Assembly (NCBI GenBank): GCA_964482405.1
Contig: CAYZXH010000001.1
Location: 661-64,660, forward strand
Source of the DNA: an uncultured Desulfurococcaceae archaeon
Lineage (GTDB): Archaea > Thermoproteota > Thermoprotei_A > Sulfolobales > NBVN01
Length of the DNA: 64,000 bases
Reading direction: 5' to 3'
Each line of letters opens with the position of its first letter. The stretch's first letter is position 1. Of this stretch, positions 9,317-57,988 are shown one piece after another. Both the position numbers and the translations under genes were made by a program. The notes beneath the pieces are model-generated. The model was not told where the DNA came from and made no database searches. It worked only from the letters and a program-made list of their open reading frames with translations.

Positions 9317-9477
9317 CTCACAGATTTCAAGGATTCATACATGAATATCTTGTGAAGGGATTAATAAATTTCTGTGAGTTAATAAAGTGTTGAGGCGGGT
9401 TTAATAACTCTGTAGTAGAGAATGTTGCGGGGGTCCTTACGCCTCTACTAGATGTTAGGTGTAGGGATATAGCTAGG

Positions 9478-12161: not shown

Positions 12162-12278
12162 ACGATAATTTTTCTTCTCAACCCAAAATTTTCTGAGGAC
12201 TTTCTAAGTTCTTCTCGTGTGGTCTCCTAGTTTCTAACACTCAGTTTATTAGGTGGGTTGCTTAAGTAGGTTTATGGA

Positions 12279-12584
12279 GTGGGTGAGGAAATGTTTAAGG
12301 TTTTTAAGAAGATTTTGAGGGAGTTCATAAGCTTCGTTAGTGGAGTTAATCAAGCGATAATTGAGGATAGCGTTAGTGCTCTCGAACTGGAGCATAACGA
12401 ACTTGAGGCAACCTTCTTAACAATAGTTTTAGGCCCTTTAGTAGGGGTTACTATGCTCTCCCCTATCCTCAGCCTAGAATTACTTGAGGCTCTCAAGAAC
12501 GAGGTCAAGATTCTTGAGAATAGGGCTGTGAGAGGTGAAGACGTGTTAGGAGATTTAATGGCTTCCCTGGGTGGTGAGTGGTGA
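12279..12584 (+). CDS. Hypothetical small protein with a central hydrophobic segment
   Basis: 101 aa, overlapping the downstream ArsA-like gene by 7 nt. The hydrophobic stretch is ATFLTIVLGPLVGVTMLSPILSL. Confidence 0.45.
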   Translation: MGEEMFKVFKKILREFISFVSGVNQAIIEDSVSALELEHNELEATFLTIVLGPLVGVTMLSPILSLELLEALKNEVKILENRAVRGEDVLGDLMASLGGEW

Positions 12585-36108: not shown

Positions 36109-36141
36109 TAAACCACCTCAAAAACCAACCCCATAGCTAAC

Positions 36142-37119: not shown

Positions 37120-37121
37120 CG

Positions 37122-38132: not shown

Positions 38133-38138
38133 TACTCA

Positions 38139-38669
38139 TCACCTCGTAAACCCCGCTAATATGTCTTCCCTCTCACTTAATTTAACTTCATATTCACTCA
38201 CGAATTTCTCAATATCTGAGAGGAGGGTACTCAACTCTTCCACGGCGATATTCGGCGTGGTCAGCCTGCTAGTGATCGCGTTTAAGGAATTTATTAAATC
38301 AGCTAACTGGAGATCGTGTTCAAGCATCTTAACCAGCTTCTCCTCATCCACCTTAGTCACGTGAAACAATGGCTTATAACCATACGGTGCGTGCCTAGTT
38401 CTCTCGGCTAGCGAGTCAATCCTGTAAATAAGTGATTCCACACGCTTAACATACTCTCCTAAACCACCCCTAGAAACCATCGCAGAGTAAGAACGCCTCA
38501 AATCCTCCAAACTCTTCCTCAACATCCTAAACAACTTATCCCTAACAACCCTGTCAGTCTCTCTAATGAGTTCTTTCTCTTTATAACCCCTATACCCAGG
38601 AAACACCATGAGAAGCTTCTCATACAACTTAAGCTCCCTCTGACTCAAATCCTTTAACACATCAGACAA
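38139..38669 (-). CDS. Hypothetical all-helical / coiled-coil protein (first gene of the five-gene operon)
   Basis: 176 aa, highly charged and heptad-rich, with no TM segment. It ends 6 nt before the SPFH gene. No family recognised by eye. Confidence 0.5.
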   Translation of the reverse strand: MSDVLKDLSQRELKLYEKLLMVFPGYRGYKEKELIRETDRVVRDKLFRMLRKSLEDLRRSYSAMVSRGGLGEYVKRVESLIYRIDSLAERTRHAPYGYKPLFHVTKVDEEKLVKMLEHDLQLADLINSLNAITSRLTTPNIAVEELSTLLSDIEKFVSEYEVKLSEREDILAGFTR

Positions 38670-38896: not shown

Positions 38897-41800
38897 TTAT
38901 TTCTTCTTGAAGAAGAAGCCGTAAATCGACGCTATTAAAGTCACTATTATTAAGCCTATTGTAGCAATACCGTAAGTTGATAGTGTTCCTGTGCTAGAGT
39001 CGATTTTCTGGCCTACATCATCTACTTTGCTAGCCACGTTATCTATCTTATTAGCTAATGCGGACACGTCAGTCTTGGAAGCCATGTTATTACTAATTCC
39101 ATTCAAGGCCTGAAGAATCTCGTTGAGTTTACTCATTATGTCTGATGATTTGCTGTTGATTAGGTTCTGTAGCGTGGTGAGTAGTGTTTGAGTATCTACG
39201 GGTAGTCCGGCCTCCACGAGTGCCTTGACTACGTCTATGCTCGCTAGTATTTCGCCCTTGGAAGTACCTATCACTCCTAGTATCTCGCCCTTACTCGTTA
39301 TTATTATCTGAGTTAGTGAAGCGTTGACACTCATTAGAGCATTGAGTAAGTCACTTAGTGATGCCTGTATCTCGCCGAGCTTTGTCTGAATAGATACGAC
39401 GCCGTTAGATATGCTGACTAACCTACCATCAATAACTCCGAGATTAGCGAGTATAGTGCTTAAATTACCTTGAATCTCGTTGAGTTTACCGGAGATCTCG
39501 TCTAGCTTGCTGGTTATCGTGAGTGTTGCTGTTCCTAGCACCTCACCCGTATCCATGTCCACAATATTTAGTTCGTGATCGCCCGCCACCACGATCGGTA
39601 TGTTCATCTTGACTTCGAAGGTTCCTAAAGCGTTCGCTCTGTAGTTCGACAACCAGTTACCGTCTAAGTATATCATCACTACCTGGTATGGGTACAGACC
39701 GGTCACGTTCACCTTCACTAGTCCTGGAGCTGTTGTCTCAGTAGGTGTTACTACTGCCTTAACTAAGACGTAGAGTGGTGTGTAGCCGTAGTACATTTCG
39801 TCCTCCGTGTACACCTCGATTAAGTGCTCGCCTCCAGGTATTAGCGGTACCGTGAACTCGAACTCAGCATATCCGGACTCATTACTTATTACACTACCGA
39901 TGATTTCACCGTCTAAGTATATCAGGAGCGTGGTATTAGCTGGAGCTCCCTCCACATGAAGTAATGCCGTATCACCTACGTGTAGGTACGGATTCTCTAG
40001 GGCAACGCTCAAAGGCCTCATCATCACCCACTTAACCGCGTTGTATATTATTTTCCACGCATCACGCGTGAAGTATGCCGGCGAATTCCAAGATGTTGGT
40101 GGGAAGCTTGAAAGCAATACCCACTTAACACCGTCCGGGAATACCTTCCAAGCTATTGAGTTACCCCACGTAGTCCCGCCTACGTAGGTGTCGGCTATCG
40201 ATGTTCCTGAGAATCCTGAGAACCATGAGAAGTCAGCTCCTGTCCACGCTATTATCTTGATTAAGTCACCCACATTATACCCTCTCAATATCGGGTGTGT
40301 TCTCGTGACTTTGATATAGACCTCGCCGTAACCCCACGTATAACCTATTGAGGACGGGTCGCCGAGGCATGAGTAAAGCACTTTTATGCCGTAGCCGTAG
40401 TAACCGTAGCTATCCATCCACACGACACCGACACCGACCTGATGGGTAGCGTTCAGGAAGGTAGCGAACTCACTACATGACGGGAACGGGACGCCGTAAT
40501 CACCAGCCCATATGACAGCGTCGTAAATCCCTGCAAGCACGTCGTTAGTTAGTGCTGCTAAGCTCGTGTAATCAACAGCGTATATGTCCATTAACTCTAA
40601 GAAGTTCTTTATAGAGCCCGCGTAGTCGTAGAGTATCGCTACTCTAGGCAGTCTCCTAAGCACTAAGACTCCTAAGTCTGTTGTCTCGTTTACTGAGACG
40701 CTGAAGTCTACCTGAAGTGTCTTATAGCCCGCAGCATTCACTAACATCGTGTAGTTGCCTTCAGGCAACCACGTGAAGAATTGCCCTGTCTCGTTAGTGT
40801 AGAGCTTAATCGGGGTCCCCAAGAACTGTACGGTGGCTCCTGCCAGTATAGTACCATCACTACCCACCACAGTTCCTGTCACGAAGCCGTGCGGTAATCT
40901 CTCGAGATATACGTCGGTTCTCGTGTATAGGTAGCTCTTAAGACCTCCCTGAACTGAGACCCCGGAACCCAGCTTAGCGCTTAATATCTTAAGGACCTCG
41001 CCGACTCTAGCCTTATCGACTACTCTGCTCGAGCTCGTGAAGCTCTGCCAACCCAACATGACGGCGTTTTCTAGAACTTTCTTAGTGTTGCTCGTGTACA
41101 TGCCGTCAGAGCCTGGCTCAAGATACTGCATCCAGTAACTCTCAGCCCAGCTACCTAGGTAGTACCATGGAGCACCGGTATTCGAGACCCACTCAGCAAC
41201 GCCTACACCGAATCTAAGGTATCCTGTTCTCGTATCCCACACGTACCCTAGAACGACGAACCTGCCGGTGGGGTCTGTAAAGTTATACACTACGTAGTCA
41301 GCGTAAGATCCTGTAGCTAGGTAGAACCTGTTAGGATACCCTGGCACGTCCGGCGTAACGCCATCAAATATCGGGTGAGTCATATTAAGCATCTCAACCT
41401 GTACGTAGGTCGGTGAAGGATACGCGATTAACCTACTTATCGGTGCTGGGTATCCATTATTTATTAAGGTGCTGTTGTATGTGTATAAGACGTATATTCC
41501 TGGATAGCCTGAGTATGAAGTACATAACCATACTAGAGTAGCTCCGGTAGCATCAGCTAGTAAGTGGAAGGCTAGAACAACGTCGCTCGGCGGATAACTA
41601 TAGGGTGAAGGCATCGTGTGATCTATGATTACGACAGCTGGATTTATGTCGCCGTTCACCCAATCAATCAGTAATTTAGTCATGTTGTTGTATTCTACGA
41701 CAGGTAGTCCGAGAGCTCCCACTATGGTCTTGAGGTGTGGTTGCGTGTAGTAATGTACGTTAGCTAAGACCACGACTGTCGGAGGTATTGGTTGCAGGTA

Positions 41801-43981
41801 GAAGTCCGCTATTACTGTCTCTAAGGGAGGTACAGTAACGCCTTCTACTGATGCTTGCACGTATCCGGGCTTCCAAGCGTAGACTGTGTAAGTACCTGAC
41901 GGAACGCTTAGCTCGTAGTAGCCCTCACTATCTGTGTACGTGTATACTGGTGTGCTATCTACGTACGTCCACACCACGGCGTCTACTATGGGATTATTCG
42001 TAACAGCATCATAGACGTGACCTGCTATGGTTCCGTTTCCTAGCGGGTATAGGCCGAAGTTGACTATCACGACCTCGGCTTCATCAACACTTACTAACTG
42101 TGTAGCGGGCTGGTAACCGCTCGCTACTGCTTCTAGGGTGTAGGTTCCTGGAGGTACTGATATCTCGTAAGACCCGCTCACGTCTGTTTGCGTGGTTATG
42201 CCTAGTTCTAAGACCGTTACGTTAGCTCCGGCTATCGGGTCGTTTGTTAGAGCGTTGTAGACTAGGCCTGTTATGGTGCCGTTGAGTAGCACTACCTCCA
42301 CAGTCACGTTAACGCTCTCATAACCCCACGCCTCGAATACGAGTGTGTAGGTTCCTGGGTCTAGAGGTATTCTGTAGTAGCCTGAAGCGTTGACTGGGAA
42401 CGTCCTCCCTATCTCTAATACCGTGACCGACGCCCAAGGTATTGGTTCGCCAGATATTGAGTCTAGCACAAAGCCCTCGACACCGCTCTTCTTAGCGAAC
42501 TCCATAGCCTTCCTAACAGCTTCATATGCGTCTATCCTTCCCCAACCATACCTAGTATCCTGTCCTGGGGAGCCGAAGTCTATGGCAGTGGAGTTCAGCA
42601 TTAAGTATATCTGCTCGGGAGTGTCAGGTATGTCGCGGTATAGCCAGCCAGCAGCTTGAAGCATTAAGGCAACTGTTCCAGAAACATGTGGTGTGGCCAT
42701 GGAGGTACCGCTCCAAGCCTCATAACCTCCTCCCGGCACAGCACTAGTAATACTAACACCGGGTGCTGAGACGTCAGGCTTTATGTAAGTGCTCGGGTAC
42801 ATGTCGAAGAACGGCCACGTGGGTGGTGGTGAGGGCCATGTAACGACCGCACCACTACTCCACGACGCGACATTATCGTTTATGTCCGTAGCGCCCACAC
42901 CGAAGACTCCCCATATATTTCCTGGGTTCCCTGTTGATCCAGGACCTCCATTACCTATGGCAGCGACCGGTATCACATTAGTTAGTAACATAGCTTCTAT
43001 GGCTGGGAATAAGTCATTCCCATAATATCCTTCAGCACCGAAACTCATTGAGACTACGTGGGCCGGCAGACCCGTGTAGACTATCTGTCCTGTAGACGGG
43101 TCTATGTAGAAGGGCTCTACAGTCCACTGCATTCCAGCTAATACTTGAGCGAACGTGCCGCCACCCCCAGGTAACACCAAGCCGTGCATGAGGGTTGCGC
43201 CCGGCGCGACACCTATCAATATATTACTCGTGTCCCCTCCTAGAGCAGTGCCGCTACAGTGCGTTCCGTGACCATGCGTGTCGTGCGGGGTGCTCAGTAC
43301 TGGGTTTCCGGCACCGTCAAACTCCATCCAGCCTCCTGGGTAGTACGGGCTCGTCGGGTCTAGAGTCAGCATCTTCCCAGCTAACGCTGGGTGAGTTATG
43401 TCAACACCTGTATCTAGGACCGCTATTCTGACCCCCTGGCCTGTGTAGCCCAGAGCCCACACTTCAGGTGCTCTAATCTTGAAGATACCCCAGCTAGAGA
43501 CTTGATTACTTCTCACGTCAGTCTCTTCTTTAGTGACAGGCTCTATTATGTGGACTTCGAAATTCTCGAAGATCTTTACTACTTCAGGTAATGAGGCTAT
43601 CTTGATAATCTTCCCTGCAGGGACCCTAGCTAGCACCACGTTATCTAGCCAGAACTTATTCAGTACTACACCTCCCTCACTCAAGATTAAGTTGATTAAA
43701 TTCTTCTGAGTATAATCAGCCCAATTCTTGAGGGTTTGAACAGCGAGTCTGTAGTTACCTCTCACGTAAGTACTTAATTCTTTAGGTATGGACTTAAGCC
43801 TTATAACAACCTCAACTAACTCATCTTCCCTCATACCTTCCAGCTTGCTCAGCAAGGGCGGCGCTATCTTGTACGACGCATCATCAGCTACCGCATTAAT
43901 AGTGATTCCAGGCAACCAACTTATTATGGATATGAACAACAAGATCGTTAAACCGGTGACGAGTATTTTCCTGTAGTTCAT
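38897..43981 (-). CDS. Giant secreted, C-terminally membrane-anchored subtilisin-like serine protease (peptidase S8) with accessory domains
   Basis: Signal peptide, then the catalytic triad motifs AVLDTGVD (D190), HGHGTH (H238) and GTSMATPHVSG (S427). Further domains: 3+1 CarboxypepD_reg-like repeats, two GATase1/ThuA-like modules (HPIFDG..., HPILRG..., NAVKW), two Ig-like repeats, a helical stalk and a terminal TM helix ending KKK. Confidence 0.9.
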   Translation of the reverse strand: MNYRKILVTGLTILLFISIISWLPGITINAVADDASYKIAPPLLSKLEGMREDELVEVVIRLKSIPKELSTYVRGNYRLAVQTLKNWADYTQKNLINLILSEGGVVLNKFWLDNVVLARVPAGKIIKIASLPEVVKIFENFEVHIIEPVTKEETDVRSNQVSSWGIFKIRAPEVWALGYTGQGVRIAVLDTGVDITHPALAGKMLTLDPTSPYYPGGWMEFDGAGNPVLSTPHDTHGHGTHCSGTALGGDTSNILIGVAPGATLMHGLVLPGGGGTFAQVLAGMQWTVEPFYIDPSTGQIVYTGLPAHVVSMSFGAEGYYGNDLFPAIEAMLLTNVIPVAAIGNGGPGSTGNPGNIWGVFGVGATDINDNVASWSSGAVVTWPSPPPTWPFFDMYPSTYIKPDVSAPGVSITSAVPGGGYEAWSGTSMATPHVSGTVALMLQAAGWLYRDIPDTPEQIYLMLNSTAIDFGSPGQDTRYGWGRIDAYEAVRKAMEFAKKSGVEGFVLDSISGEPIPWASVTVLEIGRTFPVNASGYYRIPLDPGTYTLVFEAWGYESVNVTVEVVLLNGTITGLVYNALTNDPIAGANVTVLELGITTQTDVSGSYEISVPPGTYTLEAVASGYQPATQLVSVDEAEVVIVNFGLYPLGNGTIAGHVYDAVTNNPIVDAVVWTYVDSTPVYTYTDSEGYYELSVPSGTYTVYAWKPGYVQASVEGVTVPPLETVIADFYLQPIPPTVVVLANVHYYTQPHLKTIVGALGLPVVEYNNMTKLLIDWVNGDINPAVVIIDHTMPSPYSYPPSDVVLAFHLLADATGATLVWLCTSYSGYPGIYVLYTYNSTLINNGYPAPISRLIAYPSPTYVQVEMLNMTHPIFDGVTPDVPGYPNRFYLATGSYADYVVYNFTDPTGRFVVLGYVWDTRTGYLRFGVGVAEWVSNTGAPWYYLGSWAESYWMQYLEPGSDGMYTSNTKKVLENAVMLGWQSFTSSSRVVDKARVGEVLKILSAKLGSGVSVQGGLKSYLYTRTDVYLERLPHGFVTGTVVGSDGTILAGATVQFLGTPIKLYTNETGQFFTWLPEGNYTMLVNAAGYKTLQVDFSVSVNETTDLGVLVLRRLPRVAILYDYAGSIKNFLELMDIYAVDYTSLAALTNDVLAGIYDAVIWAGDYGVPFPSCSEFATFLNATHQVGVGVVWMDSYGYYGYGIKVLYSCLGDPSSIGYTWGYGEVYIKVTRTHPILRGYNVGDLIKIIAWTGADFSWFSGFSGTSIADTYVGGTTWGNSIAWKVFPDGVKWVLLSSFPPTSWNSPAYFTRDAWKIIYNAVKWVMMRPLSVALENPYLHVGDTALLHVEGAPANTTLLIYLDGEIIGSVISNESGYAEFEFTVPLIPGGEHLIEVYTEDEMYYGYTPLYVLVKAVVTPTETTAPGLVKVNVTGLYPYQVVMIYLDGNWLSNYRANALGTFEVKMNIPIVVAGDHELNIVDMDTGEVLGTATLTITSKLDEISGKLNEIQGNLSTILANLGVIDGRLVSISNGVVSIQTKLGEIQASLSDLLNALMSVNASLTQIIITSKGEILGVIGTSKGEILASIDVVKALVEAGLPVDTQTLLTTLQNLINSKSSDIMSKLNEILQALNGISNNMASKTDVSALANKIDNVASKVDDVGQKIDSSTGTLSTYGIATIGLIIVTLIASIYGFFFKKK

Positions 43982-44335: not shown

Positions 44336-45340
44336 TTACAGGAATCCGTTATCTCTATACCATTTTATCGTTTCCTCAAGTCCTCTTCTTAAGTCATACT
44401 GAGGTCTATAACCTAGTTCTTTCTGAGCTTTACTTATGCTATATGCTCTATGTGTTGTTACAGCGTCTACTATAGACCTCCTGAGTATTAGGTTTTCACC
44501 GCCTCTCAACCTATCATAGATCTCTGTAAATATTAGCAGGAACTTGGCTATCCTAGGACCTAGCTTTATTTTCGGGGGTTCCTTACTGAGTAGGTGTGAT
44601 AGTATCTCATATACTTCTTTATAGGTATATGCTCTCTCATCACTTATTATGTAGGTCTGGCTTACCGAGACCTCGGGTTTTTCTAGGATTAGTGTGAATC
44701 CTTGAACTACGTCTCTTACGTGAGCAAACTGGACTAGGTACTCACCGCCTCCAATCATGAATTTAGATAAGATGCCTCCCTTAGCTAAGGTCATTATGAA
44801 CCAGTAAGAGACGTCATCCACGTTTCTAGGGCCGTACATGCCTGAGGGTCTTACGATAGTGTATTCAAGACCTGAGCTACTTAATTCCCTCACTACCTGC
44901 TCAGCTAGTAGCTTAGACTTCCCGTACTCGAATTGAGGATTTGGAGGAGTGTTCTCGTCTCCTGGAGGATCTCTCACAGGACCTATAGCTTCGGTAGAAC
45001 TACAGTAGATGAATCTCCTAACCCCAGACTTAAGAGCTGCTTGAGCGAGTGCGCGGGTGCCCTCAACGTTCACTAACCAATACATCTTCTTAGAACCCGT
45101 GAAGGTATAGTACGCTGCTAGGTGAATGACTGCGTCAACCCCCCTAACTGCTTGAGGTAACGTATCGTGCTTGATTAAGTCACCGTAAGCTACCTCAACA
45201 CCTAAGCTCCTTAAGTAATCTGCCTTTCTTAAATCCCTGACCATCCCCCTAACAACATACCCTCTACTAACTAATTCCTCGATTAGGTAAGTTCCTAAAA
45301 AGCCTGAAGCTCCAGTCACTAATATCTTCACACACGCCAC
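44336..45340 (-). CDS. NAD-dependent epimerase/dehydratase (extended SDR)
   Basis: N-terminal VTGASGFLGTYL Rossmann motif and YGKSK (YxxxK catalytic motif). 334 aa. Confidence 0.8.
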   Translation of the reverse strand: MACVKILVTGASGFLGTYLIEELVSRGYVVRGMVRDLRKADYLRSLGVEVAYGDLIKHDTLPQAVRGVDAVIHLAAYYTFTGSKKMYWLVNVEGTRALAQAALKSGVRRFIYCSSTEAIGPVRDPPGDENTPPNPQFEYGKSKLLAEQVVRELSSSGLEYTIVRPSGMYGPRNVDDVSYWFIMTLAKGGILSKFMIGGGEYLVQFAHVRDVVQGFTLILEKPEVSVSQTYIISDERAYTYKEVYEILSHLLSKEPPKIKLGPRIAKFLLIFTEIYDRLRGGENLILRRSIVDAVTTHRAYSISKAQKELGYRPQYDLRRGLEETIKWYRDNGFL

Positions 45341-45456: not shown

Positions 45457-46314
45457 ATGCCTACTCTCGAAGACCTAGGTACCACGTTATGGAATCAGTT
45501 AGTAGCTATGATTCCCGGAGTTATAGCGGCCATAATATGGATTATCTTAGGCGTGATAGTAGGCATCATAGTGGGGAGCATAGTCACTAAGATTCTCAGA
45601 AAGTACGTGGAGAGACCCTTATCAGTAACTCCTTTCGGGAAGACTCTCACTACGATGGGTCTTGAGTTCTCAGAACTTATAGGAGGTCTTACGAAAGCTT
45701 TCATAATATCTATTTCCCTAGTAGCCGCTATAAGCTACATACCCTTAGGCGGGGAGGTCGGGGAGCTAATATATAGCGTGGTATCCTACCTGCCTTACTT
45801 GATAGGCGGTATAGCGGTAATAACGTTAGGTTTAGTACTAGCTATCTCGCTAGCTAGGTATATAGGGTCATTATTGAGTACAGGCTTTAGTGAGACGTAT
45901 AAATCCCTCGTAGCCTTAATAGAGAACCTACTGCTCGTAGGCTTAATAGCGATAGTTTTGACAGTAGCCTTCACCCTACTCAAGCTACCGTCAACACTCA
46001 TATACCCACTCCTAGTAGGTGTCACGGCAATAGCTATAGGTGTCATTATAGTCATAGAAGTATTTAAGGCCATCACAGAAGCACACCCAGATTTCAGCAA
46101 ACTCGCGCCCTTCCTGCAATTCATAATAGTGTTTGTGTTCGTGTTCGTCGGGCTTTCAGCGATATTCAGTGAGTACTCAGTGGTGGGTGACGTACTCAGG
46201 TCGTTGTCTTTCGGCGTCATGATAGCGTTTGCGGTAATACTAATACCTGTAGCGTTCTACCTAGTTAAGAAAGTCTTAATAGAAGCTGAGAGAAGACCTA
46301 GTAAAGGAGAATAA
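45457..46314 (+). CDS. Polytopic membrane protein (repeated TM-helix units; function unknown)
   Basis: 285 aa with several long hydrophobic helices, each followed by a basic patch. The antisense ORFs look like shadows. Confidence 0.55.
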   Translation: MPTLEDLGTTLWNQLVAMIPGVIAAIIWIILGVIVGIIVGSIVTKILRKYVERPLSVTPFGKTLTTMGLEFSELIGGLTKAFIISISLVAAISYIPLGGEVGELIYSVVSYLPYLIGGIAVITLGLVLAISLARYIGSLLSTGFSETYKSLVALIENLLLVGLIAIVLTVAFTLLKLPSTLIYPLLVGVTAIAIGVIIVIEVFKAITEAHPDFSKLAPFLQFIIVFVFVFVGLSAIFSEYSVVGDVLRSLSFGVMIAFAVILIPVAFYLVKKVLIEAERRPSKGE

Positions 46315-46351: not shown

Positions 46352-47800
46352 CTACACACCCCTCTTAACCCTGAAGTAGGACGTGTAGGTGAAGTAGCGA
46401 GGGATATACTCGCCATCGTATGGCTCGCGAGGAGTTCTGAGAAATGACTCACCAAGAGGAACAACTCTATACACGCCTGCACTCGCCAACTTCCTCGTGT
46501 AGCAACTCGCTTTCCCCTCATAAACCCAGAGAGCTACTGTCTGAACCCTATCTACTCCTGCGTACCCCGTAGTTCTAGGTAATTCCTTAATGAGTTTAAC
46601 GCACTCTATTAAATCATTAACTACTATTATCTCTAAGAATCTCTTTCTAGAGTGAAGATCAAGCGGTACCAGCCTCAACCCAGTAAATGAAGACTCGCTC
46701 TTACTCACGACTACCGTGTATGGATTACGGGGATCATCAGACCTAAATACCTTAGCTCCTTGAAACTCTAGAGCTTTTCTGAGGGTATTTAGGTTATAGA
46801 GCCAGCCCTCCGAAACCTCAATCTTGTGTGAACTTCCTAAAATATCTAGGTACTTACTAACTTCCTTAGCTAGCTGAATCGCTCTCTCGTAATTCCCTAT
46901 GAAGAGAGCCATAGTAGGCGAGCTACATAACTGCTGATCATACATTAAAACCTCCATAGCAAGAGCTTCGGAAACCTCACTTAAAGAACTACCTATTGAA
47001 TCACCGTCAATAACCGCGACCCCGGTTAAGGGACCGTTAACGATTAACTTAGGCTTATGAGGATTCTCAGCCACAGCCCTATACACCAAGGTTCTACCAG
47101 GCTCGCCACCCCAATAATTCACTACTCCTAAAGGAGCTTCCTTAAGCAGGTATTCCAGTACCTTACTATTATGACTCAAGTATGTTATTAAGAGAGCGTT
47201 ACCTAAGACCAGTGCTTCATCACCTAAGTCTTCGAGGATTTTGAAGATTTCTTTAATGACGATATAGTTAGTCAGTGAAGGTCTTAAGATGGTCAAGTTG
47301 TTAGTAATTAACGAAGTAATCGTAGGTATTAACGGTGGGATCACGGAATTACCTGAAGCTATTATGAATGCAGGACCTGCAGGTAAGTTAGAGACGTACT
47401 CCCCTGGAGCAACCTCAACAAAATCGTCAAGACTTCCCACACCTCCTTCAAGACCTGAATTTATTAAGGAATCAATGTTTTCTTTCTTAAAAACTTCAGC
47501 GACAAACCTAAGATCTTCCTCAACCATTAACTCACTATATCCCGTGTTCCTCACCAGCTCTTTCTTCAAGACCTCGAGAGAGCCGCTCTCCAGCTTCTCA
47601 GTCCATGCCCTGCGAACACCCTCCAGTAACCTAACGCGTTTCTCGTGACCTAGACTCCTCAACTCCTCCTGAATTGTCTTGGCTTGACTCAGATACTCTC
47701 TAAGCCAGCTTATCTTAGGCTCAAGATGCTTAAGAGGTTCCTCGACTTGATCAGCTGGTACGCTCTCCTTGATTGGATGTAGGGGTTCTATGAGAATCAA
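46352..47800 (-). CDS. LuxC-like acyl-CoA reductase (ALDH superfamily)
   Basis: Collinear by eye with Photorhabdus/Vibrio LuxC: ASGNSVIPPL vs AGNVPLSG, YWGGEPG vs AWGGPDA, YDQQLCSSP vs YDQRACFSA (catalytic Cys region), and the C-terminal PYDGEYIPRYFTYTSY vs SHDGMRPLQRLVTYIS. Confidence 0.65.
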   Translation of the reverse strand: MILIEPLHPIKESVPADQVEEPLKHLEPKISWLREYLSQAKTIQEELRSLGHEKRVRLLEGVRRAWTEKLESGSLEVLKKELVRNTGYSELMVEEDLRFVAEVFKKENIDSLINSGLEGGVGSLDDFVEVAPGEYVSNLPAGPAFIIASGNSVIPPLIPTITSLITNNLTILRPSLTNYIVIKEIFKILEDLGDEALVLGNALLITYLSHNSKVLEYLLKEAPLGVVNYWGGEPGRTLVYRAVAENPHKPKLIVNGPLTGVAVIDGDSIGSSLSEVSEALAMEVLMYDQQLCSSPTMALFIGNYERAIQLAKEVSKYLDILGSSHKIEVSEGWLYNLNTLRKALEFQGAKVFRSDDPRNPYTVVVSKSESSFTGLRLVPLDLHSRKRFLEIIVVNDLIECVKLIKELPRTTGYAGVDRVQTVALWVYEGKASCYTRKLASAGVYRVVPLGESFLRTPREPYDGEYIPRYFTYTSYFRVKRGV

Positions 47801-49101
47801 GCAGCACTCCTCCTACTCATGAGTTCCTCGAGAGTCCCTCCACAAGCTCTCTGAAGATCCCATCCCTCATCCTTAGTTAATCTTCTAACATAGATATACT
47901 CTTTACCGTAATACCTGCTCGACTCGACAAACTTCATGATATCTCCGGGGAGGAATACCTCAAGCCATGATATTGCTAGTGGGTCATAAATACCTAGAAT
48001 ACCTTCCTTACCAGGCTCTTCAACAAGCTTATAAGTCTTAGGATCAAGTAAGAAAACCTCCTGCAGGGGGTGAGGAATCTTATACATAAAGCCATACTTG
48101 TCTATGAGTGCCGTGAGGGTCTCGGTCATCCCTAAAACATCCATGAAGGGCGTGGGCGCTTCCCTACCGTCAAAATCCCTGGACTTAAAGAATTTTCTAG
48201 CGTTCTCGACTATGATATCATATGGTGGTAAATCCGTGAATCCCTTAGTACCGCCACCCGTGACTATTACCCCGCCTGTTCCGAGATCTACTGGCGGCAC
48301 ACCAATTAAAAACTTGCTAACAAGTCTCTTCAGTAGACTCATACCCTCGAATTGCTTCGTTAGTAAGTGCACGCCGGCAGGAGCTGTGAAAAGTAGTTTT
48401 GGTTCCTCCCTACTTTTAAGGAATTCCATTATAGACTTCTTATTAGGCACGAGCCTCTGCCATTGAGACCCCTCACTAACCTCTTTTACTAAGTCCATCC
48501 CGTACAACAGCTTTATCTTCTTGCCTTGAAGAGCTAAATCAACGAACGCGACGAAGTTGAGCTTATTTCGTAACTCCCGCGCGGCCAGAAAGAGAGCTAA
48601 TCCAGCACCCTCCCTCAACACGTTACCGTAAACGTACTCAAATAACAAAGTGTTAGCTCTAGTCATCATAGCTAACTCTAAGAAACTCCTATAAACCCTG
48701 ACTGGACTGCTACTCGTAGTCCCGCTTGAGGAGAAAACAAAGCCTTCCTCATCAAAGTCCTCTATGAGGAATTTCCTGTATTCATCACCTCTCAACATGT
48801 CTGAAGGCACTGCTAACTTAATTAAATCCGTTAAATCTGCTGCGTCAGGATCTATCTCAAGCCTTTCTAGTAAGTCAGCGTAAAAACTGCTGTGCTTAAC
48901 GAAAAACTTAAGAGAATCCCTTAACAGACTCCTTCTAAGACTCTTCAGATACTCCGATGACTTACTGAATAACGAGCTATCTCCTGAAAGTTCCCATAAT
49001 CTCTTAACGTAGGGGTCGTTGAAGAACTTGCTTCTCTGCGCTCCTGAATATATCTCTTCTATAGTAGGTAGCTCGTTAGCCAAGTATCTAACACCACTCA
49101 A
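47797..49101 (-). CDS. LuxE-like acyl-protein synthetase / PaaK-F390-synthetase-type adenylate-forming enzyme
   Basis: FSSSGTTSSSP vs LuxE FTSSGTNG, VTGGGTKGF vs ITGGGWKSY, LLDPKTYKLVEEPGKEGILGIYDPLA vs ALDPETLKPVPDGTPGLMSYMDASA. It overlaps the LuxC-like gene by 4 nt. Confidence 0.65.
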   Translation of the reverse strand: MSGVRYLANELPTIEEIYSGAQRSKFFNDPYVKRLWELSGDSSLFSKSSEYLKSLRRSLLRDSLKFFVKHSSFYADLLERLEIDPDAADLTDLIKLAVPSDMLRGDEYRKFLIEDFDEEGFVFSSSGTTSSSPVRVYRSFLELAMMTRANTLLFEYVYGNVLREGAGLALFLAARELRNKLNFVAFVDLALQGKKIKLLYGMDLVKEVSEGSQWQRLVPNKKSIMEFLKSREEPKLLFTAPAGVHLLTKQFEGMSLLKRLVSKFLIGVPPVDLGTGGVIVTGGGTKGFTDLPPYDIIVENARKFFKSRDFDGREAPTPFMDVLGMTETLTALIDKYGFMYKIPHPLQEVFLLDPKTYKLVEEPGKEGILGIYDPLAISWLEVFLPGDIMKFVESSRYYGKEYIYVRRLTKDEGWDLQRACGGTLEELMSRRSAA

Positions 49102-49172
49102 TAGAAAACTATATAATAGCTTTTATTGTTTTGATCATACCCTTGACTTTGAAAGATCGTCCTGAATACACG

Positions 49173-49571
49173 TTAAGGAAACATCAGCATGCTGAAGAGT
49201 ATTACGACGTAGAGCGGTAGCGAGATATCCATGCTGTACTCGATCACGGAACCCTCCATAAACACCTCACCCCTAACCACACCGAAATTCAGTAGGGTGA
49301 GTACTATGAGCGCTCCTAAAACCTTAGATAGGAGCCGGAGCGGTAATGAAATCGGGTGTTCCCTAAGTAACGAATTCGCTAAGCCTATGCCGGTGAAGAG
49401 AGCGAAAGCAAGTAACCAGAGTATAGGTGTTTCGAGAACTTCAGTACCTGGGAGAATTTTAGAGAATAGAATTGGGAGTAGTATGACGTAAACGAAGTAA
49501 TAAAACAAACCTATGAGAATCCCGACTACCACGGAACTCACCACTTTCTTAACCTTGCTTCCCTCACCCAC
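49173..49571 (-). CDS. Small polytopic membrane protein
   Basis: 132 aa with about 4 TM helices. It overlaps the upstream gene by 1 nt. Confidence 0.45.
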   Translation of the reverse strand: MGEGSKVKKVVSSVVVGILIGLFYYFVYVILLPILFSKILPGTEVLETPILWLLAFALFTGIGLANSLLREHPISLPLRLLSKVLGALIVLTLLNFGVVRGEVFMEGSVIEYSMDISLPLYVVILFSMLMFP

Positions 49572-49951
49572 TACCCAGCACCTCTGATCCTTAATTCAAG
49601 ACGGTAAATTCCGGCGATCTTCAAGCTTATTAAGACTTCCGGGTATTCAGGAACCGAGCTAAAGTTGAGTATCATGTGCTTCGTTAGCGTAGTGTTTTTA
49701 GATAAGTCACCGAAGTATAGCGTGTTATTAAGTACCTCAAGCCTGACATCGTTTAAGGGTACGGACCCCCTATACGTGATGCTGAATACCACTTTAACGT
49801 GTGTTTCATTAAGTTGCTCGTGTGAAGTCTTTAAATCTATTAAGTCGGGCTTACTCGTTAACTCATAAACGAATATTATTGCCGGGGTTACTAATCCACT
49901 TAAGACTAGGAAAGCTACTAGACCTACCCCTAGCTTGAGGAGTGTGTTCAC
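49571..49951 (-). CDS. N-terminally anchored small protein with a beta-rich ectodomain
   Basis: 126 aa with a single N-terminal hydrophobic helix, followed by a beta-strand-like region carrying N-x-S/T sequons. Confidence 0.45.
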   Translation of the reverse strand: MNTLLKLGVGLVAFLVLSGLVTPAIIFVYELTSKPDLIDLKTSHEQLNETHVKVVFSITYRGSVPLNDVRLEVLNNTLYFGDLSKNTTLTKHMILNFSSVPEYPEVLISLKIAGIYRLELRIRGAG

Positions 49952-50286
49952 TTCTTGATCTCCTCAGACTCCTTAGGTTTCTTTTCCTTAATGTAGAGAG
50001 CTTTGAAGAGGTCAACACCCTTCCCTAACAGTATTGAACCGGCCCATATCATTGCCCCGAGAAAGCCTAACTTAATAACTAGGTTCAGTAATTCGTAAAC
50101 CGTGTTAGTGATAGATGTCTGCAAATCCCCTCCAGCAGGCAAGAGAGGCCTGTAATTAAGGTAAGCCTCGAAAGCTAGGAAAGCCCCGGAGACCACTATT
50201 AATACACCTGCTAAAAGTACCGCTACTCCTGTCACGAACGGAGTTTTACTCACCTCCATAAACGTATCACCTAAGTAACTTATCAA
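49948..50286 (-). CDS. Small 2-3 TM membrane protein
   Basis: 112 aa with a Lys/Glu-rich C-terminal tail. It overlaps the downstream gene by 4 nt. Confidence 0.45.
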   Translation of the reverse strand: MISYLGDTFMEVSKTPFVTGVAVLLAGVLIVVSGAFLAFEAYLNYRPLLPAGGDLQTSITNTVYELLNLVIKLGFLGAMIWAGSILLGKGVDLFKALYIKEKKPKESEEIKK

Positions 50287-50329
50287 CTATAATTAATAAA
50301 TGCGAGGTTTTGAAACCCTGTGGGAGCAC

Positions 50330-50683
50330 TCAGCTAAGCAACAACGCTATCTCACTCAACGCAATGAGTAGCGAGAGTATCAACGCTATTACTAGAACGA
50401 TCATCTTAATGAATTTCTTTATTCTCTCGTTTCTTGCATGTCTGTTTAAGAGTAATAACGCGCCGCCGTAGAAATGAAGCATGGATAAGGCCGCAATTGC
50501 GATCCTCAAGAGCGGGAGCGTGTGAATTTTAGCTGAGGTAGCGTACGTGAGTCCTACTAAGCTGAGGATAGGGGAGATCATCCCGTAACCACTTAGTAAG
50601 TAAAGCACTAAACACAGCGCTAGAGGAATTGAAGTATACTCAACGATTCTAAGACAGAAGTATGTTTCCCTAGCCCTACTCAT
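50330..50683 (-). CDS. 3-TM membrane protein with helix-embedded histidines (possible membrane anchor of the nitroreductase)
   Basis: 117 aa, with His54, His70 and His82 in or near the TM helices. It overlaps the upstream SagB-like gene by 4 nt. Confidence 0.45.
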   Translation of the reverse strand: MSRARETYFCLRIVEYTSIPLALCLVLYLLSGYGMISPILSLVGLTYATSAKIHTLPLLRIAIAALSMLHFYGGALLLLNRHARNERIKKFIKMIVLVIALILSLLIALSEIALLLS

Positions 50684-51474
50684 CTCCTCAACCTGGTGTA
50701 GAGGTCTTGAATCTCTCTGAAATCCGCTTTACGAGGACTTAGGGGGACCCCTACAGGGAATACGTATAGCGGGCGCTCATCGCGACGAGCATTAACTACC
50801 CTAGCCACCTCATCGTCGTAGAAAGCTCCTATAGCGACAGTCCCTAAACCTAGAGCCGTACTCATCAAGTAAACGTTCTGTCCAACATGACCTACCTCGA
50901 TGTGGACATACCTAATACCTCTCTCACCGTATCTCCACGTAGTCCTCTCGTAGATAGCACATATCACTAAGCTTACCGGAGCCTCCCTAACCCAGTCCTG
51001 CCTCAGCGTAGCTTGCCACAAATCATTCCTGAAATCCCCGCTCTTAACAAGTCTTAACGAGTGCCTTCTATAATCATATTTATAAACCCCTGCCTCCACG
51101 TAACCACCGTCACCTAGGGAAACACCTCCCTCACCTATAACCACGTAAATTTCTAGAGGGTAGGTAGCTCCCGCGCTGGGGGCAGCTCTCCTAAGCCACC
51201 CGTCTACATCCTCAACCACACCTTGAGAAGCCCAGAGAATCATCGATAATTGCTCGATGGTTATGGGAGAATCCCTCCACTCCCTAACACTCTTTCTAAG
51301 AAGGATAGCTTCCTCAACAGTAACGACACTCATCTTTCTGGGGAGGGGGAGAAGCAACTCACCACCCACGACTTCAACACCACCTAAATCTCCTTGGGGA
51401 GCATATAAAGAAAACAACACGTAAACAATAATTAAAACAGTAACTATCCATGACAAAGCGAAACCCAACCTCAC
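50680..51474 (-). CDS. SagB/ThcOx-type nitroreductase-family dehydrogenase with an N-terminal TM anchor
   Basis: RKSVREW...ITIEQLSMILWASQGV...RAAPSAGATYPLEIYVV is the SagB-type dehydrogenase pattern. The N-terminal TM helix is LSWIVTVLIIVYVLFSLY. Confidence 0.7.
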   Translation of the reverse strand: MRLGFALSWIVTVLIIVYVLFSLYAPQGDLGGVEVVGGELLLPLPRKMSVVTVEEAILLRKSVREWRDSPITIEQLSMILWASQGVVEDVDGWLRRAAPSAGATYPLEIYVVIGEGGVSLGDGGYVEAGVYKYDYRRHSLRLVKSGDFRNDLWQATLRQDWVREAPVSLVICAIYERTTWRYGERGIRYVHIEVGHVGQNVYLMSTALGLGTVAIGAFYDDEVARVVNARRDERPLYVFPVGVPLSPRKADFREIQDLYTRLRR

Positions 51475-51567: not shown

Positions 51568-51693
51568 TGGCGGTCCCGGTCATAGCGGTCGGGAAACACC
51601 CGGACTCGTCAGATCCCGGAAGTTAAGCCGGCCGCGTTGAGAGGGCAGTGAGGTCCGCGAGGCCTCGCAGCCCTCTCAAACTGGGATCCGCCA
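51568..51693 (+). rRNA. rrf: 5S ribosomal RNA (stand-alone, crenarchaeal type)
   Basis: Strong resemblance to the Sulfolobus 5S rRNA: CCCGGTCATAGCGG...AACACCCGGACTCGT...CCCGGAAGTTAAGCC...CTGGGAT. The termini GGCGGTCCC / GGGATCCGCC pair to form helix I. Confidence 0.9.
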
Positions 51694-52928: not shown

Positions 52929-53651
52929 GTGAGATATATTAAGGAAGTTACCTACCCTATAACGACTTTCCTACTTTTCCACGAGTTATGCCCCTTACTA
53001 GGCTTAAGTAGTGAGTACTCGATTTACTTACCCATAGTATTCACGATACTACTGTGCTACGGTGACAGAATCAAGATATTCTTGCTGAGTAAAACAGTCA
53101 GCGGTGACTTACTAAAAGTGATTGATTTAAGCTACGGTAGGTTAAGGGCCCTACAGAAAATTAGGCTGAGGACTGCCCAGAAGCTAAGAATTTACGTTAA
53201 CTTAACCGGCCTGCTATTCCCGGTCGTCTTAGCACTATCATTAAGTGCTTACCTAATCCGTCAAACACCTAACTATCTCGTAACATACCTCTTACTACTC
53301 TCGTTTCTGACAGCCACGTACAATAGGCTCTCAATAACTGTTTACGAGAAGGGAATACTTGTCTCATTAGCCTCCAGCGTCGTCGTCACGGCTATGTCAA
53401 CGCTTGCAATAAGCATACACTATAAGCTGGGCGCGGACGTAACTTTCATGACAGCATACTCCGTCAGCGCTCTAGCAGCTCTGATAGGTATAGACTTACT
53501 GAACCTGAGATACGCGACATTCTTCAACACTAAGTCAATAATTATGGGTGGGTATGGAGTTAAAGACGCGATATTCCTTATCCCAGCCCTCTCCTCGATA
53601 ACGGCAAAGCTACTCTATAGCTTGATAACTAATCTACCCTCCTATATCTAA
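52929..53651 (+). CDS. Polytopic membrane protein, function unknown
   Basis: 240 aa with 6-7 hydrophobic segments and a GTG start. Confidence 0.5.
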   Translation: MRYIKEVTYPITTFLLFHELCPLLGLSSEYSIYLPIVFTILLCYGDRIKIFLLSKTVSGDLLKVIDLSYGRLRALQKIRLRTAQKLRIYVNLTGLLFPVVLALSLSAYLIRQTPNYLVTYLLLLSFLTATYNRLSITVYEKGILVSLASSVVVTAMSTLAISIHYKLGADVTFMTAYSVSALAALIGIDLLNLRYATFFNTKSIIMGGYGVKDAIFLIPALSSITAKLLYSLITNLPSYI

Positions 53652-53991
53652 GCCCCGCCTCCCTGAGTAGCGAAGTGATTAAGTCATTAATCAACACTAA
53701 CTTCTCCGGAATCAACGTATCCACGGATACCTTAACCAAGAAGTATCGGGCTTCAAACATTCTGGTCTCGGCGCCGTAAGGCTGTGGGAGAATCTTAACT
53801 AAGGTATCTGAAGAACCGCAAACATATGAGTGTTCCTCAATACTACAAACATAACCCAACTTCTTCAAGCCTTCCTTCACCAAACTCAAAGTCTTAACTA
53901 GTAAGTCGTAGGTCTCGGGAAGGGATTCAATTAACAACACAGTAGTGAAAACCCTGCAATTACTGTTCAAGTACTTCAACCCCGGACTCAC
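53629..53991 (-). CDS. Hypothetical protein downstream of threonine dehydratase
   Basis: 120-aa ORF overlapping ilvA by 32 nt, so the start is uncertain. No motif recognised. Confidence 0.35.
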   Translation of the reverse strand: MSPGLKYLNSNCRVFTTVLLIESLPETYDLLVKTLSLVKEGLKKLGYVCSIEEHSYVCGSSDTLVKILPQPYGAETRMFEARYFLVKVSVDTLIPEKLVLINDLITSLLREAGLRYRRVD

Positions 53992-55262: not shown

Positions 55263-55523
55263 TTGAGAGCGCGGAGAAGTGTGAGGAGCGTTAAGGAAGC
55301 CAAAGAATTATTCACTGAACTAAGCGATGCCATGGAGTGTGGGGAGAGAGTTAAGGTATTGATTGAGGATATAAGCAAGATCCATGAATACGTGGAGCTC
55401 GTGATTAAATCTAAGCTCTCATTAATAGACGTTGAGGAAGCTGGTAAAAATTATTACCTAGTAATAGAGAACAGGTTCAGTAATAGGTGCGTGCAGAATG
55501 ACCGAGAAAGTAGAGATAGATAA
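55263..55523 (+). CDS. Hypothetical small protein
   Basis: 86-aa ORF with a TTG start that overlaps the Lrp gene start by 26 nt. No motif recognised. Confidence 0.3.
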   Translation: MRARRSVRSVKEAKELFTELSDAMECGERVKVLIEDISKIHEYVELVIKSKLSLIDVEEAGKNYYLVIENRFSNRCVQNDRESRDR

Positions 55524-56037: not shown

Positions 56038-56928
56038 TTATTTCTTGAGTTTCCTCAGTAAGTAGTCTACTATCTTAGGTGCGGGATTCACTCCGGTACC
56101 TGCGTGAAAGCCTTGCCAGTTAGGCATTGCGTTAACTTCGTAAACTACGTAACCATCCTCGGTCTCGCCTACGTCGACCCCTGCGTAGTCTAGTTTCAGA
56201 ACTTTAGTAGCTTTTAAAGATAGTTCTGCTAATTCAGCGTCTACCGGCGCTTTCTCAACTCTCGCACCCTGAGCTACGTTGGTTTTCCAAGTATTCTCGG
56301 GTTTATACCTGTATATCGCGCCCAGAATCTCATCACCTACTATGAAGACTCTTATATCTCGCTCCTTGGCTCTAGCGTATTTCTGTATTAGGAGTGGCTG
56401 GCTATGGCTAAGCCAGGTCTTGCCTATTATGTAGGCTATGTCAGGATCTGAAACAAGTAGTGAGCCGTAACCCATACTCCCTATCAATGGCTTAATGACT
56501 GTCTTACCCCAAGATCTCACTGTCTCGCTTAACACGTAGACGTCCTCAGTAATCTTAGTTTCAGGAACCCTCACCCCGGAACTAGCTAGTAATTGAGTTG
56601 CTCTATACTTATCGCGAGCGTTCAGGAAGCCCTCACTACTATTGACTAGTAAAGCACCACCTATCTCAAGCTGTTTCAGTATGTTTACCCTCTTGAGAAG
56701 GGTCTCCATACTCGCTACGGAACCAACCCCCCTCACCAAGCCACCATCTATCTCGACTAAGTGATCACTACCGTAACTAATCCTCAGACTACCGTCTTTT
56801 GAGACTTCACCGTTAAGTCTCGAGATTCTTAAGTAGAGAACGGAAACACCCTTCCTCAACAATTCCGTAAGTAACTCCCTAGCAGTCTGGGGAGGCACGG
56901 GAGCCTCGTGAATTACAGCAACCCTCAA
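56038..56928 (-). CDS. RimK-family ATP-grasp ligase (MptN / LysX / RimK-like alpha-L-glutamate ligase)
   Basis: VIKPLIGSMGYGSLLV, DIRVFIVGDEILGAIYR and GVDVGETEDGYVVYEVN are ATP-grasp RimK-type motifs. The specific substrate cannot be assigned. Confidence 0.75.
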   Translation of the reverse strand: MRVAVIHEAPVPPQTARELLTELLRKGVSVLYLRISRLNGEVSKDGSLRISYGSDHLVEIDGGLVRGVGSVASMETLLKRVNILKQLEIGGALLVNSSEGFLNARDKYRATQLLASSGVRVPETKITEDVYVLSETVRSWGKTVIKPLIGSMGYGSLLVSDPDIAYIIGKTWLSHSQPLLIQKYARAKERDIRVFIVGDEILGAIYRYKPENTWKTNVAQGARVEKAPVDAELAELSLKATKVLKLDYAGVDVGETEDGYVVYEVNAMPNWQGFHAGTGVNPAPKIVDYLLRKLKK

Positions 56929-57004
56929 ACATCGTTACCTCAAGAGTATTTAGCTTAGGCAACTATTTAAGGACTACACAAATAAACATCTAGAGTGGGG
57001 TAAC

Positions 57005-57973
57005 GTGATTGAGTGGATACTGATACCAGCAACGACTACGCTGGCGTCAACCTACTTAATTATGAGTGTGGAGAAGAGTAGGGGGATAACATCCCCGGAT
57101 ATTCATAAGCCCGGGAAGCCTAGAATACCCAAGACAGCAGGACCGGCGTTCATGATTACCTTGCTAGCTGGGTTAATTCTCTCCCTATCAAACAACATGA
57201 CTTTATTCACGTGCCACGTCCTAGCAGCGGTGATCGCCGGCTTAATAGGGTTTTGCGACGACTTTAAGGGTCTTGGAGCTTTGTGGAAAGTGGTTTTGCT
57301 CACACTTCCCTCACTACCAGTCCTCCTCGGTGCTGCTTACGTGCCAAGACCTTATATACCGTTAGTTGGTTCCTTGAGGATACACATAATATACCCGTTG
57401 CTTCTACCACTAGCTTACAGCGTGTCAACGAACGCTTACAACATGATCGACACACACAACGGTATCGCGGTAACAGCAGCACTCACATCATCGATAGCCT
57501 TGTTGATATCCACCGTGGACAAACCCCAACCACTGGATGAGGGCTTCATATTCTCGCTATTCGTCATATCCTTCCTAATTAGTTACTTCCCCTTCAACGC
57601 GTATCCCTCAAAGATATTTAATGGTAATAGCGGTTCCTTCATGTTAGGATCCTTAGTAGCTTCTCAAGCAATATTATTGAGGAGAGAGTACTTAGCGCTA
57701 TTGCTTTACATACCCTTAATAATTAACGGTTTCAGCATATTGACTAGCATCGGCGGATTCATGAATAAGGAGAGGATTTCGAGACCCGTGATAATAACCG
57801 AGGATATGAGGGTAGCTCCGAATAAATCAAGTAAGGCGCCAGTCACGTTGGTTCAATTACTAGTATTGGGGAAACCTCTCACCGAGAAGGAGTTAATAAA
57901 GCTTTACAACCTTTTAATACTCTTAAACACCATTTTTTCACTAATTGTTTACCACGTGTTAGCTAACTTGTGA
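57005..57973 (+). CDS. aglH: Polyprenyl/dolichyl-phosphate N-acetylhexosamine-1-phosphate transferase (AglH / MraY-WecA family, GT4)
   Basis: Polytopic, with CDDFKGL (DDxxG) and NAYNMIDTHNGIA (NxxNxxDxxNG) motifs. Confidence 0.7.
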   Translation: MIEWILIPATTTLASTYLIMSVEKSRGITSPDIHKPGKPRIPKTAGPAFMITLLAGLILSLSNNMTLFTCHVLAAVIAGLIGFCDDFKGLGALWKVVLLTLPSLPVLLGAAYVPRPYIPLVGSLRIHIIYPLLLPLAYSVSTNAYNMIDTHNGIAVTAALTSSIALLISTVDKPQPLDEGFIFSLFVISFLISYFPFNAYPSKIFNGNSGSFMLGSLVASQAILLRREYLALLLYIPLIINGFSILTSIGGFMNKERISRPVIITEDMRVAPNKSSKAPVTLVQLLVLGKPLTEKELIKLYNLLILLNTIFSLIVYHVLANL

Positions 57974-57988
57974 TACCCGAGTAACGCG

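Follow-up and report, generated by a model that had tools for sequence, protein, structure and literature searches.

In a stretch of 64,000 nucleotides from an uncultured Desulfurococcaceae archaeon (contig CAYZXH010000001.1; the whole stretch is called the window below) we analyzed two coupled genes for homologues of LuxE and LuxC, the acyl-protein synthetase and the reductase in the fatty-acid reductase complex of bacteria, and found that together with a gene for a short-chain dehydrogenase/reductase (SDR) of the extended type they form a conserved trio. We consider it fairly probable that this trio encodes a pathway independent of coenzyme A (CoA), in which a carboxylic acid is converted via an aldehyde into an alcohol with the acyl group tethered to the enzymes. 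What is new here is most likely the predicted three-gene acid-to-alcohol module, conserved in anaerobic archaea; luciferase-less luxC/luxE pairs are already known in bacteria. To our knowledge the LuxC-LuxE form of acid reduction has been studied only for bacterial light production, and our literature search on LuxC/LuxE or acyl-protein synthetase in archaea found no paper on an archaeal system. Reducing a free acid to an aldehyde at the expense of ATP has been described as a reaction that is rare in biochemistry (PMC9157457).

The genes of the trio and the gene lying between two of them in the window are as follows (aa, amino acids).

47797..49101, minus strand: LuxE-like acyl-protein synthetase gene, 434 aa, TTG start
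46352..47800, minus strand: LuxC-family acyl-thioester reductase gene, 482 aa, TTG start
45457..46314, plus strand: membrane-protein gene between luxC and the SDR gene, 285 aa, Pfam MS_channel_1st_1 (1.9e-5)
44336..45340, minus strand: extended SDR reductase gene, 334 aa, with TGASGFLG, R35, S114, Y139 and K143

Gene order and distribution of the trio

For the gene-order counts 80 metagenome loci were fetched and their open reading frames (ORFs) were called and clustered. The luxC gene comes right after the LuxE-like gene on the same strand in every locus with room for it (66 of 66), the junctions measuring mostly 0–4 nt. It is directly followed by the SDR gene in 44 of 56 loci, with a 4-nt overlap at this second junction in most loci, and in another five of the 56 the SDR gene lies elsewhere in the locus. 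The window belongs to the latter, as luxC and the SDR gene are split there by the membrane-protein gene on the opposite strand. This insertion (ORF cluster 42) was seen only in the window and its closest relatives, loci L001, L014 and L039; the membrane-protein gene is a feature of this Zestosphaera-like lineage and stands outside the conserved module. All Pfam-labelled homologous loci that reach beyond luxC have an extended SDR gene next on the same strand. The sequence-only reading, made from the letters and ORFs of the window, was right about the pair but had overlooked a conserved third partner, the SDR, with which the predicted product becomes an alcohol instead of an aldehyde.

In the 44 loci with all three genes complete the LuxE-like proteins share on average 62% identity in pairwise comparison, the SDRs 57% and the LuxC proteins 45%, and the pairwise identities of the three proteins are correlated with r = 0.84–0.90, as expected for a trio that is inherited as a unit. 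A natural fusion protein of 884 aa (P0250, from a 66-kb JGI metagenome contig) joins a LuxE-like part (residues 5–382) to a Pfam LuxC domain (residues 422–754). As ORF clustering of 94 sources, the window included, gave no fourth conserved partner and the neighbours beyond the SDR gene are lineage-specific, the trio appears to be self-contained.

Lineages were assigned from source names and records, and the trio was found in at least seven of them, namely Desulfurococcaceae (Zestosphaera, Thermosphaera), Thermofilaceae, Methanomethylicia, Bathyarchaeia, Odinarchaeia (with the closed genome of Odinarchaeum yellowstonii as example), Archaeoglobaceae and Methanomassiliicoccales. The pair, for which the sequence-only reading had proposed a survey in archaea, is therefore conserved together with the SDR gene across several anaerobic archaeal lineages. 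Loci 97% identical to the window come from a Zestosphaera sp. and an uncultured Desulfurococcaceae archaeon. Together with the length of the two tRNA genes of the window, which fits the presence of introns, they mark the window as archaeal. In one 97% identical locus, L039 (~8105–9407), ORF calling splits the LuxE-like gene, possibly owing to a frameshift, a sequencing error or a pseudogene.

The downstream protein belongs to the LuxC family

The downstream protein of the pair scores 105 bits against the Pfam LuxC model PF05893 (cut-off 21, E 5.4e-30, model positions 10–393 of 401) and so passes the gathering cut-off in the profile check that the sequence-only reading had suggested. As each of the two proteins of the pair also has more than 100 close homologues, these genes are no chance ORFs. 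A search of the PDB with the protein alone returned LuxC of Photobacterium phosphoreum (7xc6_A, E 3.5e-11) with YDQQLC(292)SSP aligned to YDQQACFS, and with a profile of 32 archaeal LuxC homologues 7xc6_A is the sole match at E ≤ 0.01 (E 8.5e-21). Cys292 is the counterpart of the catalytic Cys296 of P. phosphoreum LuxC and is invariant among the 32 homologues. An AlphaFold (AF2) model of the protein has a predicted local distance difference test (pLDDT) value of 91, and Foldseek ranks 7xc6_A first for this model (template modelling (TM) score 0.77, E 9e-20, 483 columns, full length), whereas other aldehyde dehydrogenases (ALDH) reach TM scores of 0.60–0.68. By all sequence tests and model-based fold tests except the equivalog test described below, the downstream protein is clearly a member of the LuxC family, and its predicted role would be the reduction of an acyl thioester to an aldehyde with NAD(P)H.

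The upstream protein is a divergent LuxE homologue

The upstream protein is of the ANL-superfamily adenylating type, with a P-loop S125-S-G-T128, K286 in TGGGTKG, R406/R407 and Cys420. The Pfam LuxE model misses it and detects just two of 32 family members (best 2.9e-7), but the family matches Pfam-verified LuxE proteins profile to profile. Alignment of the family with five of these proteins by hhalign gave a probability of 99.7% and E 1.1e-25 over 343 columns, full-length, and paired K286 with the lysine of the LuxE GGWK motif, R407 with an arginine conserved in LuxE and C420 with the C-terminal cysteine that is invariant there. Against the PDB the best match of the family profile is LuxE 7xc6_E (3.6e-4), where R406/R407 pair with VRRL, followed by PaaK at 0.1; with PaaK-family ligases the profile has the N-terminal region and the P-loop in common. 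K286, R406, R407 and C420 are all invariant in the family alignment of 32 homologues.

For LuxE, mutagenesis and modelling have tied K238, R354/R355 and C364 to adenylation and self-acylation; C364 lies within the motif TRxxKGCxLS, and the cryo-EM work describes the tail bearing this cysteine as a flexible arm that needs to reach LuxC (PMC9157457). The AF2 model of the archaeal LuxE-like protein has a pLDDT of 85.5, with values below 50 for residues 421–434 directly after Cys420, and in this model the tail from residue 421 is probably flexible. The family is strongly isolated, as among 1.84 billion representative proteins only 77 matches at E ≤ 0.001 and 27 at ≤ 1e-30 were obtained; all six of the weakest full-length matches that were scanned are Pfam LuxE proteins. 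More distant relatives from Theionarchaea and the actinobacterium Pseudonocardia sediminis show the C-terminal end ...R-x-G-C-G. From these comparisons the upstream protein is best called a LuxE homologue outside the reach of the Pfam model, representing a distinct and mainly archaeal LuxE-related subfamily. The likeness of the pair to LuxE and LuxC, first noticed from motifs, is borne out by profile, fold and residue comparisons.

In some Pfam LuxE proteins, namely P0287 (530 aa) and P0299 (548 aa), the acyl-carrying cysteine is followed by a further ~150 aa at the C-terminus. In P0299 this extension gives a weak match to the winged-helix DNA-binding model HTH_27 (19.5 bits, under the cut-off of 22.2).

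The third partner is an extended SDR

The product of the third gene matches Pfam Epimerase (1.8e-45) and also 3Beta_HSD and NAD_binding_4. Among the NCBIfam models HpnA, SdmB, OleD and thioester-reductase models were matched, each under its own cut-off; for HpnA (TIGR03466) the score is 178 bits with a cut-off of 368, which places the protein in the extended SDR superfamily only, and for the thioester-reductase model TIGR01746 E is 3.8e-21, also below the cut-off. The substrates of these closest named families are lipid-like compounds or thioesters. The best PDB match is 3wj7 (5.6e-39), possibly the aliphatic aldehyde reductase Gox2253, an identity that was given no weight. The cofactor motif TGASGFLG and R35, S114, Y139 and K143 are at least 95% conserved in the 44 orthologues, and R35 may favour NADP(H). 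We propose that this SDR turns the aldehyde into the primary alcohol.

Proposed pathway and comparison with known systems

In the proposed scheme the LuxE-like enzyme would use ATP to adenylate a carboxylic acid, and the acyl group of the resulting acyl-AMP would move onto the synthetase's own Cys420 next to the probably flexible C-terminal tail. This tail would then hand the acyl group over as a thioester to Cys292 of LuxC, where NAD(P)H would reduce the thioester and the aldehyde would be released, and finally the SDR would convert the aldehyde into a primary alcohol. The chemistry of each step is read from homology, while gene order, conservation, the conserved residues and the fusion protein are observed directly. 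A hydrophobic substrate, either a fatty or an isoprenoid acid, is weakly favoured by the precedent of LuxC/LuxE, the lipid-type relatives of the SDR and the neighbours found in Thermofilum, an acyl carrier protein (ACP) and the phosphopantetheinyl transferase AcpS; the term fatty-acyl used in the sequence-only reading was an assumption. As the synthetase averages 62% identity across lineages and its family is very isolated, the comparison suggests that the trio has a specific and important substrate.

The closest known system is the bacterial lux LuxC-LuxE complex (P. phosphoreum, 7xc6), in which the same two families are encoded in one operon and which shares with the archaeal proteins the catalytic cysteine of LuxC as well as the lysine, the arginine pair and the C-terminal acyl-carrying cysteine of the synthetase. 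In contrast, the archaeal genes are adjacent in the order E then C, lack luxA, luxB and luxD and are joined by an SDR gene; the archaeal synthetase is ~60 aa longer and missed by the Pfam LuxE model, the archaeal LuxC is far under the NCBIfam equivalog cut-off and apparently does not conserve the myristoyl-cleft residues, and the archaeal host is an anaerobic hyperthermophile. Carboxylic acid reductases (CAR), which resemble nonribosomal peptide synthetases (NRPS) in their adenylation-peptidyl carrier protein-reductase (A-PCP-R) architecture, combine ATP-dependent adenylation, a thioester and NADPH to form an aldehyde, which aldehyde reductases convert into an alcohol. The predicted overall chemistry of the archaeal trio is the same, but CAR are single polypeptides that carry a phosphopantetheine arm and a reductase domain of the SDR type, whereas the predicted arm of the trio is a cysteine at the enzyme's own tail and its thioester reductase has the ALDH fold. 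Among solved folds, PaaK-family ligases (PaaK1, BT_0428, ClxA, AjiA1, NatL2) come closest to the LuxE-like model, and they share its N-terminal region and P-loop; they transfer the acyl group to CoA or an amine, and the LuxE-like protein differs from them by its conserved C-terminal cysteine and its obligatory LuxC partner, as in LuxE.

In the polar-flagellin glycosylation islands of non-luminous Aeromonas, luxC/luxE pairs without luciferase are presumed to supply lipid-derived building blocks, and these islands also hold ACP, a 3-oxoacyl-ACP reductase and an AMP-dependent synthetase amid glycosyltransferases (PMC7874193). The archaeal trio differs from these pairs in having no fixed context, with ACP and AcpS nearby only in Thermofilum. 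A fatty-alcohol route in archaea has been shown experimentally for FcrA, a haloarchaeal fatty acyl-CoA reductase resembling the reductase of 3-hydroxy-3-methylglutaryl-CoA (HMG-CoA) (PMC11948995). FcrA belongs to an unrelated family, however, uses acyl-CoA, performs both reductions with one enzyme and occurs in aerobic halophiles.

Alternative explanations

Several observations speak against the tethered acid-to-alcohol scheme or parts of it. In a Pfam scan the LuxE-like protein gave no match at E ≤ 1, the LuxE model PF04443 included, and the best Foldseek matches of its model are PaaK-family ligases forming CoA thioesters or amides (TM ~0.6, E 1e-12). The NCBIfam LuxC equivalog model NF052251 gives the LuxC protein 56.6 bits with a cut-off of 750, and the window LuxC must therefore be a different enzyme from that of luminous bacteria. 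L107, W111, M114 and S118 in the cleft of P. phosphoreum LuxC correspond to E, F, E and K in the window protein, in a rough mapping from a weak alignment; a C14 chain is not favoured because the distal hydrophobic positions of the cleft carry charges, although the alignment of this helix is too weak to settle the chain length. The high conservation of the LuxE-like protein (mean 62%) may point to a specific small metabolite and not to bulk fatty acids. Finally, the SDR was not seen in the locus in 7 of 56 cases, and it could act on a group of the substrate other than the aldehyde.

This last point leads to the strongest alternative, which we nevertheless regard as unlikely, namely that the aldehyde is the final product or an intermediate and the SDR works on another group, perhaps a 3-keto or 3-hydroxy function like those handled by OleD and the 3-beta-hydroxysteroid dehydrogenases (3-beta-HSD). 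Besides the seven loci without a nearby SDR, it is favoured by the best named relatives of the protein (HpnA, SdmB, OleD and 3Beta_HSD), as the SdmB, OleD and 3-beta-HSD enzymes work on ring or beta-keto/hydroxy groups. Reduction of the aldehyde, however, agrees better with an SDR gene that is tightly joined to luxC, mostly by the 4-nt overlap, with a protein that co-evolves with both partners and with its matches to NAD_binding_4 and, below the cut-off, to TIGR01746.

With clearly less probability the upstream enzyme might load ACP or CoA instead of its own cysteine, which would make the trio a split NRPS-type carboxylic acid reductase. ACP and AcpS do adjoin the trio in the Thermofilum loci L012, L022 and L027, the SDR resembles thioester-reductase domains and the nearest solved folds of the upstream protein are CoA ligases. 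But ACP and AcpS stand beside the trio in this one lineage only and are absent from the window, and the invariant C-terminal cysteine pairs with the acylation site of LuxE. Moreover, the alignment with LuxE proteins of 370 aa reaches both C-termini, suggesting that there is no room for the ANL C-terminal subdomain, the thioester-forming part of PaaK (PMC9157457), yet the window protein has the length of PaaK and Foldseek aligns ~380 columns of its model with PaaK1.

An ordinary catabolic pair of a PaaK-type aryl/acyl-CoA ligase and a CoA-acylating ALDH seems very improbable. Some database sources do label homologues as phenylacetate-CoA ligase or aldehyde dehydrogenase family protein, and PaaK1 tops the fold search; NCBIfam PaaK, however, gives the LuxE-like protein only 11.7 bits with a cut-off of 700, and in both sequence and fold the downstream protein comes closest to LuxC and not to a CoA-acylating ALDH. 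No genes of phenylacetate catabolism (paa) were found near the pair in the scanned neighbourhood and no catabolic context recurs among the loci, where the neighbours beyond the SDR vary by lineage. Hence neither an ordinary ALDH and phenylacetate-CoA ligase with a catabolic context nor a loss of the catalytic cysteine was found, the two outcomes by which the sequence-only reading was to stand or fall. Operation in reverse, from alcohol or aldehyde via enzyme-bound thioester to acyl-AMP with ATP made from AMP and pyrophosphate, would suit fermentative hosts that are mostly energy-limited anaerobes and is chemically conceivable as each step is reversible in principle, but it is hardly credible: nothing in our data supports this direction, the equilibrium of the whole sequence is against it, and LuxC is a known reductase without the catalytic residues usual in ALDH (PMC12041015).

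Junction, starts and neighbouring genes

The sequence-only reading had described a coupled pair with a 4-nt overlap, and both ORFs are found exactly where it placed them: the TGA stop of the LuxE-like gene (47799–47797) and the TTG of luxC (47800–47798) share the letters TTGA. The two motifs it had quoted, SSSGTTSSSP in the upstream and YDQQLCSSP in the downstream protein, are also present in the translations. Because an in-frame stop codon of the luxC frame sits upstream at 47815–47813, this TTG is the sole usable luxC start. Two short motifs accompany the pair.

47809..47814, minus strand: AGGAGG, a putative ribosome-binding motif within the last part of the LuxE-like gene and 8 nt ahead of the luxC TTG
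49110..49116, minus strand: TTATATA, a TATA-like motif seen in the sequence upstream of the LuxE-like gene

TTATATA (49116–49110) is a candidate promoter for a two-gene transcript. Just 8 nt separate this TATA-like box from TTG 49101, so that the LuxE-like gene may in truth have a leaderless start at the in-frame TTG 49083.

Among the main ORFs between 34.6 and 59.6 kb (with 53629–53991 and 55263–55523 left out) there was no Pfam match to luciferase or LuxD, the rest of the window being read by eye, and none of luxA, luxB or luxD was called in ten Pfam-labelled homologous loci; the earlier remark that no luciferase or transferase gene is nearby holds for the ORFs scanned.

In Thermofilum, ACP and the AcpS-type phosphopantetheinyl transferase flank the trio in three closely related loci at the following positions.

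L012, 552–821 and 5729–6103: ACP/AcpS block
L022, 1332–5304 and 13765–14136: ACP/AcpS block
L027: ACP/AcpS block

Genes for a phosphotransacetylase/butyrylase (Pta), an acetate-kinase-family protein (Ack) and a sugar nucleotidyltransferase lie further upstream in these loci, and in L022 a family-B DNA polymerase gene separates this block from the trio. ACP, AcpS and Pta-Ack are all uncommon in archaea. We rejected ACP and AcpS as general parts of the system, as among all loci they occur only in these three and are absent from the window.

Eleven loci of the Methanomassiliicoccales type (L006 at 11772–13696 and ten more, e.g., L007, L037, L044, L059 and L071) carry a gene for a MenA-like UbiA prenyltransferase after the SDR gene and on its strand, and next to it lies a divergent radical SAM gene on the opposite strand. 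This neighbourhood may reflect a functional linkage or mere synteny within the lineage. A GrpB-like gene is found directly upstream of the trio in 19 loci. In Methanosuratincola (L004) two thioredoxin-like genes and an ArsR-type regulator lie upstream of the trio (7346–7881) and glutaredoxin and ferredoxin-thioredoxin-reductase-like genes downstream on its strand (11807–12666); such redox genes may be relevant to a system using two reactive cysteines. Odinarchaeum yellowstonii (L094, 10474–13660) has a gene for an alpha/beta hydrolase (551 aa) convergent with the SDR gene and then one for HMG-CoA reductase. A function in the conversion of HMG to mevalonate was set aside, as HMG-CoA reductase two genes away was seen in Odinarchaeum only, a single case. 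From reading their sequences, the remaining neighbours look like unrelated housekeeping-type genes that differ between lineages.

Just upstream of the LuxE-like gene in the window, four small membrane-protein ORFs (112–132 aa) without a Pfam match and a protein of the nitroreductase family whose N-terminal segment looks hydrophobic are encoded on the same strand (49173–51474). Beyond the window these ORFs were seen only in its closest relatives, with the full set in L014 and L039 and three of the ORFs in L002 and L018. Next to them lie a 5S rRNA gene (51572–51689) and two tRNA genes of ~90 nt (to 51972), for which introns are probable from the length; a tRNA-Tyr with the anticodon ATA called by ARAGORN looks like an intron artefact. 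On the other side of the trio, positions 38897–43981 encode a secreted subtilase (Peptidase_S8) of 1694 aa that contains four CarboxypepD_reg repeats and ends in a membrane anchor at the C-terminus, and related large S8 protease genes are also found near the trio in L008 and L021. A block of four minus-strand genes (34630–38669) encodes an SPFH/Band-7 protein that has a SHOCT tail and, on its flanks, three proteins without a Pfam match, two of which have Cys-pair motifs resembling zinc ribbons. At 56038–59637, a RimK-type ATP-grasp ligase, a GT4-family transferase, a GHMP-kinase-like protein and an MptE-like pterin diphosphokinase are encoded together, and this region may be a cluster for the biosynthesis of a pterin (methanopterin-like) cofactor in a Desulfurococcaceae archaeon.

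Conclusion

The trio is a potential source of thermostable, CoA-independent acid-to-alcohol enzymes for biotechnology, and knowledge of its substrate could close a gap in the lipid or cofactor metabolism of archaea. That the trio represents a widespread archaeal CoA-free route from free acids to fatty (or isoprenoid) alcohols or aldehydes is a bold reading that we hold to be rather improbable. If it were true, the route would supply lipids not expected of archaea, for instance alkyl ethers, wax-like neutral lipids or lipid anchors, and fatty-acid-derived metabolism would gain a conserved place in anaerobic archaea of several phyla, which would bear on the ‘lipid divide’.

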